A stretch of DNA of 35,071 bases, from positions 195,719-230,789 of the forward strand of contig JBMOPW010000036.1 of NCBI GenBank assembly GCA_049322915.1. Reading direction: 5' to 3'. Every line of letters starts with the position of its first letter. Positions within the stretch are counted from its first letter, which is position 1. The DNA is from Candidatus Zhuqueibacterota bacterium. Its GTDB lineage: Bacteria; Zhuqueibacterota; Zhuqueibacteria; Thermofontimicrobiales; Thermofontimicrobiaceae. A model generated the notes under the pieces. The model was not told the DNA's origin. It did no database searches and saw nothing but the letters and a program-made list of their open reading frames with translations. This document shows, in pieces, positions 22,364 to 34,828 of this stretch. The translations under genes were made by a program, and so were the position numbers.

Positions 22364-22444
22364 CTATACCTCACCAAAAATGACTAAATTTGCTTTTATA
22401 AATATACAATATCTGGATTAATAATACAATCTTTTCAGCTATAA

Positions 22445-22850
22445 CCCATAATCCCCGCAGTTAGAGTTATACGCCATTAGCGCCTGCGTGGAAATTATTA
22501 GTTGAAGCATAGAGAAACCAGTATTATATTTAATTGGCGTTAAAATATAATGATGGAGGTCTCCCTATGCTTCGTCATCATATCACTCATTTTTTAGACT
22601 ATTGCAAAAATTCAAACTTCTCCAATCGCTCCATCGAATCGCTGGAGTGCCGGTTGCTGGAATTCAATGCCTTCATCCAACAGCAGGCCGCTCCCGGCAT
22701 CGAGCACATCACCTACCACCATCTCATTCAATTCGTCGCCGATTTTGGCACACCTTCACCATCCGTCAAAAAAATGCGGGTGTGGAGCCTGCACCAATTC
22801 TTTCATTACCTGACCCTGCAACAACTCATCCCGCACAACGTCGCCGCGCT
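22445..22850 (+). mobile_element. Tyrosine-recombinase element copy 1 (left end plus truncated recombinase, ATG 22567), abutting the cassette G|TT
   Basis: ctataac|ccataatccccgcagttagagttatacgccattagcgcctg. ORF MLRHHITHFLDYCKNSNFSNRSIESL...L.EF..F...ITYHHLIQFV...SPSVKKMRVWSLHQFFHYL...NVA is an XerD/phage-integrase SAM-like N-terminus. Colinear and near-identical with 25510-25828. Confidence 0.75.
22502..22530 (+). promoter_or_regulatory. Putative sigma70 promoter of the recombinase gene (also present in copy 3)
   Basis: TTGAAG-17 nt-TATATT, followed by RBS ggagg and ATG. Confidence 0.45.
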
Positions 22851-23292
22851 ATTACAGTCCCTGTCAGTTTTGATGAACGCATCGCACGACTGAATCTTCT
22901 ACAGGCAGGGTGGATCAATTATTTCAAATTAGCCAATATGTACGGCAAATTACGAGATATTGATGTCTGGGTTCGCCGCCGTCTGCGTGGCTGCATCTGG
23001 TCCCGCACCTGCGGGAGAAGAAACCAAACCGTAAGATGAAGAATCTTATCCGTTTGGGAATTCAACCAGGCATTGCCTATTCCTGGAGCCGCACTCGAAT
23101 GGGACGCTGGGCAGTTGCATGCAGTCCAATCCTCAGCACGACAATTACAAACGAAAGACTGGAACGCAGGGGCTATATTTCTATGCTATCGTATTACCTT
23201 AAAATTACTCATGGTTAATGAACCGTCCCGAAGCGTCGGGATGGTGTGAGAGGTGCACTCCAGTGGGAAACTGCTGAAGCCACCTACTCGAT
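22851..23292 (+). mobile_element. Group IIC-attC intron 3' remnant (frameshifted maturase C-terminus, damaged DV, DVI)
   Basis: SFDERIARLN..QAGWINYFKLA...LRDIDVWVRRRLR.CIW / KNLIRLGI...AYSWSRTRMG.WAVA.SPIL.TTIT..RL..RGY.S. Then gaaccg...tggtgtgagagg...cacctactcgat, followed by tagcggc, the rest of an attC R'' on the bottom strand. Confidence 0.9.
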
Positions 23293-23298
23293 TAGCGG

Positions 23299-23487
23299 CT
23301 ATTTTGCTGGCTCTACACCAAGATCTTTGCATATCTTTCTCGCCAAGATGTCCTTGATCTCGGAATGCCGAGGAATCGCCGACCGTTTATTTTGCGCTGG
23401 ATTATGCCACCATGAATGCTTACTACCTTCTCGTAAAAGATCGCATCCCTGGCTTCGCAGATACTTGAGAAGTTCATTTCTCTTCAT
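23299..23487 (-). CDS. hicA: HicA-family toxin
   Basis: MKRNELLKYL...GC.LLREGSKHSWW.NP...SAIPRHSEI...LARKICKDLG. Confidence 0.9.
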   Translation of the reverse strand: MKRNELLKYLRSQGCDLLREGSKHSWWHNPAQNKRSAIPRHSEIKDILARKICKDLGVEPAK

Positions 23488-23696: not shown

Positions 23697-23734
23697 ACTC
23701 TTTGCCTCCATAATGAATATTTTATGCACGATAA

Positions 23735-23778
23735 CCCATAAACCCCGCAGTTAGAATTATACGCCATTAGCGCCTGCG
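23735..23778 (+). mobile_element. Tyrosine-recombinase element copy 2 (left end only), abutting the G|TT of the hicBA cassette
   Basis: cgataac|ccataaaccccgcagttagaattatacgccattagcgcctgcg. Confidence 0.75.
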
Positions 23779-25484: not shown

Positions 25485-25511
25485 CTGGATTTTCATGAAA
25501 TAGATGGTTAA

Positions 25512-26011
25512 CCCATAAACCCCGCAGTTAGAGTTATACGCCATTAGCGCCTGTGTGGAAATTGTTAGTTGAAGCATAGAGAAACCAGTATTATATTTAA
25601 TTGACGTTACAATATAATTATGGAGGTTTCCCTATGCTTCGTCATCATATCACTCATTTTTTTGAGTATTGCAAAAATTCAAACTTCTCCAATCGCTCCA
25701 TCGAATCGCTGGAGTGCCGGTTGCTGGAATTCAATGCCTTCATCTTACTGCAGGCCGCTCCCTGCATCGGGCACATCACCTACCACCATCTCATTCAATT
25801 CGTCGCCGATTTCAGCACACCTTCACCAAAGGTGGTGTGTCGATCTGTCTTTTCCCCGGGAGAAGTACGCCTTGTTTATGCCTTATCGAAATAGCGATTG
25901 ATTTTTCCAACTCAATCGGTTATATTGAATCATCAACTGCTGCTCTCTCTATGTTGATGCTGCTTTTTCACCTGCCTAATTGCGTATAACTCGATTCTTT
26001 ACTGCGGGGTT
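25512..26011 (+). mobile_element. Tyrosine-recombinase element copy 3: both ends present, internally deleted (500 bp), inserted at the attC crossover
   Basis: Left end (c)ccata-aaccccgcagttagagttatacgccattag; right end (reverse complement) aaccccgcagtaaagaatcgagttatacgcaattag. Recombinase N-terminus from ATG 25634 breaks at 25828. Removing the element restores ...gcggagc ttttc GTTAACC. Confidence 0.8.
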
Positions 26012-33979: not shown

Positions 33980-34828
33980 GTCGGGTAGCCAAGAGCTGTT
34001 ACCAGCTCTCAGCCCCCTAAGAACCGTACGTGACAGTTTCCCGTCATACGGCTCAAGCCTCTGAAAAGTATCCCTTGTGGGGATACCCACGAATTAATAA
34101 TAATTTGTTTCACGTTACTTTCTGATATTCAGAATAGCCATAAGGTATGTAGAGTGCACCATTCGCCAAACGGCGAACGTTATTTGCTTTTTCTACTTTC
34201 ATCTGATTATACCAGTATTCACGAGACCAGAGACCTGCTGAACGTCTGCCTCTTTGCAGAGTCCCGATTCATCGGGATATCCCGACCGTTACAGCCGGAC
34301 ATTCGCTTCTTTCAGCATCCTATTCCAATCCACCATCAGCTTGCCTTACGGTTAGCCTGCCCATCATAACAGGGCGATGGAATTGGGTTTCCACGTTCCG
34401 TACAATTGACCACAATGAGCAACTTAGGTGGATTCTCTACGCCGGCGATACGACAGTTCCGTATAGGTAGTTAGAAGACCTATAACCTGATCGCCTGTGT
34501 AAACACAAGGAAACACAGCTTAGACCTGACCCGCAGTTATTCTTGCTGGAATAATCTCCGTAGGTCAGATGCACGCATGACGACGCTTACGAACCTTTGA
34601 TTATTCTCACCATATTACTCAGACCTTAGCCCTTAACCAGAGGAGATTTCCGGATGGGTTTCCATCTCACGACTTCCACCCGTTTCGGTACATTGTCCGG
34701 TGAGCTTCACACCCCGTCACCTGCGCAACGGCAGCATGTCACCGTAAGGTACTGATAGGAACATATCAGGTTTGTCCAAAGAACATAATCCTTTAACAAA
34801 CATTCAATTATACAGCTTCGTGTCGCAC
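33980..34828 (-). mobile_element. ORF-less group IIB (CL1-like) intron, 849 nt, inserted in an attC R' core
   Basis: 5' end GTGCGACACGAAG; intact DV GAGCCGTATGACGGGAAACTGTCACGTACGGTTC; DVI ending CTACCCGAC; no RT ORF; flanks GTTATA|CCCG. Confidence 0.92.

Follow-up and report, generated by a model that had tools for sequence, protein, structure and literature searches.

What has become of a group II intron in which the maturase frame and the catalytic core each carry a 16-base palindrome of the same design? The question is raised by a remnant in a 35,071-nucleotide stretch of contig JBMOPW010000036.1 (the window) from a Candidatus Zhuqueibacterota bacterium, where palindromes of the form TCCCG-N6-CGGGA occupy the end of the maturase gene and domain V (DV) of a class C-type intron. 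A sequence-only reading had taken them for replacements with fixed arms and variable centres, and for possible footprints of either a tiny mobile palindrome or a host process that scars mobile DNA. The altered domain, here indicated as DV*, is an allele shared across at least three phyla, transferable, and not a local scar. Its distribution is best read as the short-patch transfer of small hairpin cassettes between intron copies, a reading which is tentative as to both mechanism and direction.

The element is the dead, 5'-truncated 3' third of a class C-type group II intron. Its bounds were set by alignment with intact relatives: homology begins near 22858 and ends at 23292. Neither the reverse transcriptase (RT) domain nor the 5' GUGYG end is present in the remnant, and the DNA upstream of about 22858 is unrelated and repeated. 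Contigs from public runs diverge from the window at 22858, with a loose end, and run upstream as intron open reading frame (ORF) sequence; runs X3, X4 and those with a small share yielded short pieces only, and the parts not covered are uninformative. The remnant's 5' junction is lost in the window; full-length relatives in Pseudochryseolinea flava lie behind hairpins. When the 66-amino-acid (aa) frame B tail was used as a query, matches were found in 13 of the 167 genomes of the phylum; those with an intact frame, of 427 to 467 aa, include G073 (467 aa), G140 (427 aa) and G100. Rfam reports no group II family at 22700–23400 even at E<=10, the separate intron at 33980–34828 being recognised; the remnant is predicted to fold into a continuous 10-bp hairpin followed by a domain VI (DVI)-like hairpin with a bulged A, and L011, one of the relatives aligned with it at DVI, scores 38.9 bits with RF00029 over DV-DVI. 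The features are as follows:

22858–23292, plus strand: class C-type group II intron remnant, with the maturase gene end, DV*, DVI and the 3' end ...CTACTCGAT (homology to intact relatives).
22860–23000, plus strand: maturase (X/GIIM) domain, frame A, C-terminus ...RRRLRGCIW (PF08388 GIIM, 41.6 bits; TIGR04416, 28.7 bits).
23001–23016, plus strand: hairpin 1, TCCCGCACCTGCGGGA instead of CATGACTG (alignment, run contigs, predicted 6-bp stem).
23018–23218, plus strand: maturase C-terminal tail, frame B, KKPNRKMKNLIRLG...YYLKITHG followed by a stop (70–83% identity to the tails of relatives with intact ORFs).
23221–23246, plus strand: DV*, composed of AACCG, hairpin 2 TCCCGAAGCGTCGGGA (23226–23241) and TGGTG (fold and alignment; bulge-less 10-bp helix).
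23248–23292, plus strand: DVI with bulged A (GAGAGGTG...CCACCTACTC) and intron 3' end (fold; aligned to the DVI of relatives).
34262–34277, minus strand: third motif copy, a hairpin within a separate ORF-less group II intron at 33980–34828, minus strand (motif scan, Rfam).

Both 16-mers are found at the positions first read, TCCCGCACCTGCGGGA at 23001–23016 and TCCCGAAGCGTCGGGA at 23226–23241, and both are replacements rather than plain insertions: sixteen bases stand for 8 at the first site and for 25 at the second. The replaced bases, defined by alignment with intact introns, are seen again in the run contigs. At the first site, TGG CATGAC TGG AAG of G073 and G140 is aligned with TGG TCCCGCACCTGCGGGA G AAG of the window. 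The loss, earlier estimated at about 8 nt, is of exactly 8 bases, and the net gain of 8 produces the frameshift between frame A, which ends at 23000 and meets a stop at 23037–23039, and frame B, which is open from 23018. Hairpin 1 has a predicted 6-bp stem, with a stability of -14.2 kcal/mol when flanks are included. The 8-base form appears in one contig each of X1, X2 and X4, where 8 letters are absent at 23001–23016, and a loose end at this site reads CATCTGGCATGACTG. A second X1 contig, about 10% diverged, crosses the site without gaps (its letters are only partly listed), which indicates that a 16-base segment is also present there in at least one other copy. In a DV* copy of a Balneolaceae genome (L042), an insert directly after the same TGG codon also starts with TCCCG, and the frame is likewise shifted.

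DV contains the triad that binds the catalytic metals (PMC4424553). Here relatives read AACCG CCGTATTCGAGACCCGAACGTACGG TGGTG, and the window AACCG TCCCGAAGCGTCGGGA TGGTG. Run contigs show the canonical domain, with 9 extra letters at 23227–23239 (one contig each of X1 and X2), as does a loose end. In the fold of canonical DV a 2-nt bulge separates the lower from the upper helix, while the window sequence folds into a single helix devoid of bulges; the two folds are predicted to be equally stable (-17.4 kcal/mol). DV* retains only three basal pairs, with the first two triad bases (C and G) and the G-U wobble; the bulge has disappeared together with the upper helix and the third base of the triad. 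The combination of AGC/CGC triad and bulge is absent. The reported loss of the CGC triad and of the bulge is thus correct for the bulge and the third base, but not for the first two. With the maturase frame shifted and DV cut to three basal pairs, neither protein nor ribozyme could work; DV* copies are inferred to be dead for splicing. The two window hairpins are of one type (T-CCCG-A/C, four bases, T/G-CGGG-A), and the fixed arms and variable centres noticed from the sequence recur among all DV* copies, where the stem is invariant and the loops differ.

DV* was searched for with the pattern AACCG-TCCCGA-N4-TCGGGA-TGGTG in two collections. In genome_contigs nine loci were found: four in P. flava, one in each of three metagenome-assembled genomes (MAGs) assigned to Caldithrix, Brumimicrobium and Balneolaceae, and two identical to copies of the congeneric genome G005. 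In metagenome_contigs, 15 loci were found. When distinguished by their 3' flanks, the copies are 22, from 11 sources (6 genomes and 5 metagenome series), all with identical junctions, AACCG on one side and TGGTG on the other. Their stem is invariant, while the loop is GTAC in 13 copies, AGCG in 3, CTTT in 2, and AACG, CGCG, CGCC and TCCT in one each. Several loci may occur within a source, as with seven in one metagenome series and four in P. flava. The source genome of the window (G000) has a DV* copy also in contig C14, and G005 has two, one with the AACG loop; in G000:C29 the canonical bases are present. The 5' truncation points and the 3' flanks of the G000 and G005 copies all differ. In P. 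flava there are mini-introns without an ORF, about 430 nt in length, which sit behind hairpins and have precise GTGYG 5' ends; they occur in both canonical-DV and DV* forms, with near-identical backbones and the same two junctions.

The history of the backbones was analysed separately from that of DV. A tree was built on 150 nt 5' of DV and 75 nt of DVI, DV being excluded, for 23 sequences (14 DV*, 9 canonical); it comprises the copies with an alignable ORF tail, and therefore omits the Caldithrix copy, two Brumimicrobium-type copies, G000:C14 and G000:C29. The DV* label requires at least four changes on well-supported branches, and no tree among 200 bootstraps can accommodate a single origin. 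The canonical introns of G103, G109 and G111 form the sister group of the window and G005 copies (97/92), and in P. flava canonical and DV* forms are intermixed. Comparison of the protein tails agrees with DV* polyphyly. DV* is therefore carried by at least four separate backbones that also have members with normal DV; across these backbones, conservation 5' of DV extends over only about 6 bases.

Local origins of DV* were considered and rejected. In classical quasipalindrome correction one arm of a hairpin serves as the template for its partner; neither arm of canonical DV, however, has the DV* arms as its complement. A footprint of transposon excision is contradicted by the lack of duplication of the flanking bases and by the 22 identical junctions, which make repeated imprecise repair impossible as a cause. 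Derivation in place from the 3' half of canonical DV was suggested by the string CCCGAA.CGT, in common with G073-type DV, but the nearest backbones (G103, G109, G111) have CCCGTACG, and the P. flava and Balneolaceae domains begin with different bases and finish with the same arms.

Hairpins with the same arms are gained and lost also elsewhere in introns: just 5' of DV, at the DVI tip, at two domain I tips and within the ORF. In one metagenome series, two otherwise near-identical alleles, A and B, differ by two added TCCCG...CGGGA hairpins: ATC+TCCCGAAGTCCCGGGA near the ORF end, and GGCGCCTG+TCCCGAT-N12-ATCGGGA, replacing TTTG just 5' of DV*. Three such hairpins are present in each of L051 and L053, among them TCCCGATGCATCGGGA just 5' of DV* and, at the DVI tip, TCCCGATCAATCGGGA in the former and its one-base variant TCCCAATCAATCGGGA in the latter. 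An ORF-less Balneolaceae intron with canonical DV carries TCCCGCTGGAGAGCGGGA and TCCCGCACGTGCGGGA at domain I tips, where relatives carry other sequences; both lie inside Rfam group-II D1-D4 matches, and TCCCGCACGTGCGGGA coincides with the window hairpin 1 at 15 of 16 bases. Presence and absence in near-identical copies fit something written in. The DV hairpin, however, is no footprint made at the window locus, the same swap being found in 22 copies from 11 sources. This sharing comes near to the refuting observation named along with the original reading, intact and active relatives with the same 16-mers in place, although no DV* copy is demonstrably intact or active.

Other short inserts are found at the same spots in decayed relatives with canonical DV (L010, L013, L018 and L014, from G112, G111, G103 and G138). 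G111, G112 and G103 have a different hairpin, CCCGCC-N4-GGCGGG, at the same place just 5' of DV; the G138 inserts are one of 20 bases following KKPN and one of 27 bases within the DV loop. The Caldithrix copy (L038) features an extra 24-base insert with a small hairpin (GTCCCAAAGGGA...) between DV* and DVI. The separate ORF-less intron of the window, 849 nt long (RF02012, RF00029), is present in three copies: at 33980–34828 (minus strand) in the window, at about 88039–88879 in G000:C19 and at about 241271–242103 in C32. Each lies behind a long imperfect hairpin of about 110 nt, and the window copy shares 92% identity with the others. Whole 16-base hairpins are exchanged in it, TTCGCCGTTTGGCGAA for TCCCGACGAGTCGGGA at 34162–34177 and GAGCTGGTAACAGCTC for GGGGCAGCAATGCCCC at the DVI tip. 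Members of this intron family occur in 17 of the 167 genomes of the phylum.

The over-representation of the motif, on which the sequence-only reading depended, is evident at both scales. In the window, TCCCG-N6-CGGGA occurs three times (23001, 23226, 34262) against 0.06 expected, and none of 100 dinucleotide shuffles contains three or more. In G000 there are 47 copies against 9.9 expected from 5-mer counts: the ratio of 4.7 ranks 19 among about 1000 stems, whose median is 1.05. A sixth pair is present in 35 of the 47, where a quarter would be expected; among 6-bp stems with loops of 3 to 5 bases, TCCCGA occurs 29 times against 1.62 expected (18-fold) and TCCCGC 9 times against 1.67. Ten of the 47 copies fall inside open frames of at least 250 aa, about the chance number. 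The sites include two intron families, two families resembling miniature inverted-repeat transposable elements (MITEs), 23S rRNA, RNase P RNA and the repeats upstream of a Y1 transposase gene. The MITE-like families, about 165 nt long, bear the motif at their central tip, and in one of them the six central bases are exchanged between copies (CATTTG or AAGCAT). The 16-mers themselves show neither terminal inverted repeats nor target-site duplications, being entirely arm and loop, with target bases lost. A methylase/Vsr ratchet was set aside, the 5-mer being only about 1.3 times its flat expectation. Three palindromic families are also abundant in G000 (examples at C14:749419, C1:279 and C14:809367): CCCCGACTTAAAAGTCGGGG, part of a longer element, in about 40 copies, GTAGTGGACGGTCGCGACCGTCCACTAC, with a GTAG head, in about 30, and CGTTCGGGAT-N4-ATCCCGAACG in about 37.

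Structured RNAs of the host carry the stem as well. The G000 RNase P RNA (C45:45019–45365) is about 95% identical to that of G005. TCCCGA hairpins form its P3 and P12 tips; the corresponding tips of G005 are TGCGC... and TCCGCC..., and Caldithrix resembles G005. A third RNase P hairpin, presumably P18, is a near-match to the stem in G000. In G000 the stem of three variable 23S helices (C45:69000–71814) is TCCCGA/TCGGGA or TCCCGC/GCGGGA; in G005 and other relatives it is mostly of CCGCC type. P12 was examined as a donor of DV*, as both contain ACCG-TCCCGA-N4-TCGGGA-T in G000, and rejected: the different P12 tip of G005 and Caldithrix indicates that the G000 state is recent, while DV* is older. 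Abrupt swapping of the RNase P and 23S tips was likewise rejected: the DNA flanking RNase P cannot be aligned between G000 and G005, which places the two genomes far apart and leaves room for slow compensatory change.

Fixed arms with variable centres, replacement, the preference for tips, identical junctions on several backbones, and gain and loss are together best fitted by short-patch copying. Small hairpin cassettes would pass between intron copies in short patches, landing mostly on hairpin tips, when the intron RT or a replication fork switches template, or through gene conversion over very short tracts; homology would be limited to a few conserved bases at the hairpin foot. A conserved flank of about 6 bases would suit microhomology copying better than RecA-type recombination. 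Quasipalindrome template-switch mutagenesis and the copy-choice of retroelements rewrite hairpins in patches, by using few homologous bases; the likeness is to the proposed mechanism, the DV* arms complementing neither canonical arm. It is possible, though doubtful, that the 16-base cassette parasitises group II introns and perhaps other structured RNAs, being copied from one molecule to the next by template switching, landing mainly on hairpin tips and, in its DV form, killing the ribozyme and nonetheless becoming widespread among intron families of several phyla. In a bolder variant, introns with DV reduced to a bulge-less hairpin may still be mobilised.

Several observations weigh against transfer by copying. 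The exact window 16-mers are not found elsewhere in the genome as a donor, and no copying step was observed. The motif exceeds its backwards control also in five genomes devoid of DV*, and its Brumimicrobium copies are the tips of terminator-like and MITE-like hairpins: part of the excess may therefore reflect a generally favoured strong stem, and some recurrences may be convergent. The hairpin at 34262 seems to derive in place from an older one through a 5-base loss. Some DV* hairpins have a 5' half similar to canonical DV bases (CCCGAA.CGT), a resemblance that hints at an in-place origin. Finally, the same microsatellite defect of the ORF is present in at least four DV* loci, and DV* outnumbers canonical DV in several sources; both facts are easier to explain if DV* copies still multiply.

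An alternative source of the hairpins would be a Y1 transposase of IS200/RAYT type, recognising the TCCCGA/TCGGGA stem in single-stranded DNA; the hairpins would be similar to repetitive extragenic palindromic (REP) elements, and the remnant a tolerant recipient of two. The search for a Y1 gene flanked by the motif, suggested along with the original reading, was successful in G000, where one of four Y1_Tnp genes has this arrangement. It lies on contig C45 and encodes a 150-aa protein of the IS200/IS605 family (NF033573, 63.8 bits; PF01797, 89.2 bits). Upstream, a unit of about 280 bp is repeated four times in tandem, with CCCA-TCCCGATTGATCGGGA-TGGG in every unit; the last of these hairpins lies some 65 bases ahead of the start codon. 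About 90 bases past the stop lies a unit of a palindrome family of about 37 copies, CGTTCGGGAT-N4-ATCCCGAACG, in which the loop closes the opposite end of the same 6-bp duplex. This 24-base hairpin has 17 of 24 bases in common with the window DV*. The 18-fold excess of TCCCGA hairpins in G000 also agrees with such a source. The link is lost in other genomes: four of the five other DV* genomes (G005, P. flava, Brumimicrobium, Balneolaceae) have only distant homologues, with 33–44% identity, and the Caldithrix MAG has none at E<=1e-10. TCCCG-N6-CGGGA is absent from all 12 homologue loci fetched, two of which (L095, L097) have a 13-base form with a 3-base centre only, and in P. flava the motif is at chance level outside DV*. 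REP hairpins are flanked by a conserved head of GTAG type; here, the bases 5' of the inserts (CTGG, ACCG, TCCA, AATC, CCTG, GGTT, ACTG) share no string, nor do the flanks of the 47 genome copies. Moreover, bases are replaced and not merely added, and 22 copies with identical junctions cannot be independent insertions. A transposase origin is, on the whole, unlikely.

In the repeats upstream of the Y1 gene (C45:153900–155700; L070, L089), Rfam finds the Acido-Lenti-1 RNA motif, with 40.6, 32.2 and 28.3 bits. Several small hairpins are present in each array, and GTCCC-loop-GGGAC hairpins, like the one inserted in L038, are common in these repeats.

DV* could instead be a functional hairpin, selected in a non-autonomous or still mobile intron lineage as a protein-binding stem or a minimal DV, the other TCCCG hairpins being added copies of the same functional site. 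This would account for a stem which is invariant across phyla while the loop varies, for DV* copies with precise 5' and 3' ends at different sites, and for the multiple loci per source, seven in one metagenome series and four in P. flava, with a microsatellite shared by at least four loci. The loop also starts exactly 5 pairs above the triad position, at the site of the canonical bulge. The state of the copies themselves is less favourable. Of 17 copies examined, ten have at least 1.8 kb of upstream sequence, and none of these ten contains a complete RT+X frame; the best frames are a 294-aa RVT_1, with the X domain replaced by a microsatellite, and a 179-aa GIIM. Many copies are truncated at the 5' end or internally deleted. 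A point in favour is the short contig L054, where a frame of 173 aa, with the GIIM domain in full, runs on to the end of the contig without a stop. Above the triad, all six pairs, near-invariant in canonical DV, are rewritten, the third base of the metal-binding triad, which resides in DV (PMC4424553), is changed, and the loop sequence is not conserved. A selected function appears improbable.

In three metagenome loci (L043, L044, L055), the maturase X domain is replaced by a compound microsatellite of CCAATTA-type and TTGCAC-type units, whose repeat number depends on the locus.

A third explanation invokes ordinary decay together with convergent evolution of favoured C-rich/G-rich hairpins: helix tips would drift by compensatory change, and the recurrences would be independent. 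Counts of the motif and of its backwards control agree with a general preference, the motif being in excess in all 10 other genomes counted. Among those with DV*, the respective numbers are 30 and 1 in G005, 11 and 1 in P. flava, 13 and 4 in Caldithrix, 18 and 1 in Brumimicrobium, and 11 and 1 in Balneolaceae; among those without, 7 and 0 in G002, 4 and 0 in G003, 7 and 4 in G011, 12 and 1 in G013, and 8 and 4 in G073. The terminator-like hairpins of Brumimicrobium and the apparent derivation in place of the hairpin at 34262 point the same way, as do the RNase P and 23S tips of G000, which belong to variable helices, different in every relative, in species far apart, with RNase P flanks that cannot be aligned. 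Convergence, in contrast, does not predict an identical 26-base DV*, with identical junctions, on at least four backbones, nor hairpins added between otherwise near-identical copies, nor a 16-for-8 swap in an ORF where no hairpin stood, nor 29 TCCCGA stems where 1.6 are expected; as a full account it is decidedly unlikely.

A host defence which recognises mobile DNA and overwrites it with palindromes would explain why both hairpins inactivate essential intron functions and why DV is hit repeatedly, but is highly improbable: the same stem is found in essential host RNAs of G000 (RNase P P3/P12 and three 23S helices), in terminator- and MITE-like hairpins of other genomes and at one of the domain I tips in a canonical-DV intron whose ORF tail is open. 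Moreover, the 6 DV* genomes have no linked candidate gene in common, and DV* is inherited, not remade at each locus.

Short-patch copying has only partial parallels among known systems. Degenerate, fragmented and ORF-less bacterial class C introns are similar in having an X-domain tail, a DVI with bulged A and a 3' end close to those of intact relatives with CGC-type DV, and in the mini-introns of about 430 nt behind hairpins. Known degenerate introns are described in terms of truncation and decay, whereas here the DV core has given way to one defined 16-base hairpin, whose junctions are identical in numerous copies from several phyla; a literature search found no report of such a hairpin-for-DV allele. 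REP/REPIN elements with their RAYT transposases, as presented in PMC3116915, are likewise short, over-represented extragenic palindromes, and one Y1 gene is flanked here too. The present hairpins differ in being only 16 bases long, without a conserved flanking tetranucleotide, in replacing target bases and in residing in structured RNAs and introns; DV*, moreover, is carried also by genomes in which no Y1 gene flanked by the motif was detected. The nearest analogue may be the small dispersed repeats (SDR) of Nostocaceae (Elhai et al. 2008, Genome Res 18:1484), cited in PMC5861425, on HIP1, and in PMC3116915; they are reportedly palindromic repeats of tens of bases (21–27 nt), thought to be mobile and found inside other mobile elements; the likeness is one of kind only, as phylum, sequence and length differ.

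Class IIC introns target terminators and attC sites (PMC4424553). An integron context was considered for the locus and rejected, no IntI scoring above the cut-off in G000 (best 79 bits against 265). A 48-base sequence (ATAACCCATAA.CCCCGCAGTTAGA.TTATACGCC...) occurs three times in the window, at 22441–22488, 23731–23778 and 25509–25553, between small genes similar to toxin-antitoxin ones (DUF4160/DUF2442, HicA and a weak UPF0150-like match). A 320-base block at 22442–22761 is 95% identical to 25509–25828 and contains a truncated ORF (MLRHHITHF...). The layout resembles a cassette array, though the genome has no integron integrase above the cut-off.

No part of group II introns is more conserved than DV, which is also the feature generally used to find them. 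In PMC4424553, ORF-less bacterial introns are held to be rare unless their DV structure is unusual, in which case searches based on DV would miss them; DV* derivatives are a class of introns invisible to such searches. DV* would also imply a short-patch copying process, which moves tiny hairpins between copies of a retroelement. P. flava, a cultured strain with both alleles side by side, allows direct tests. If the copying process is real, it would provide a testable model for the way in which tiny non-coding palindromes spread, and in which an intron family is silenced or becomes non-autonomous.

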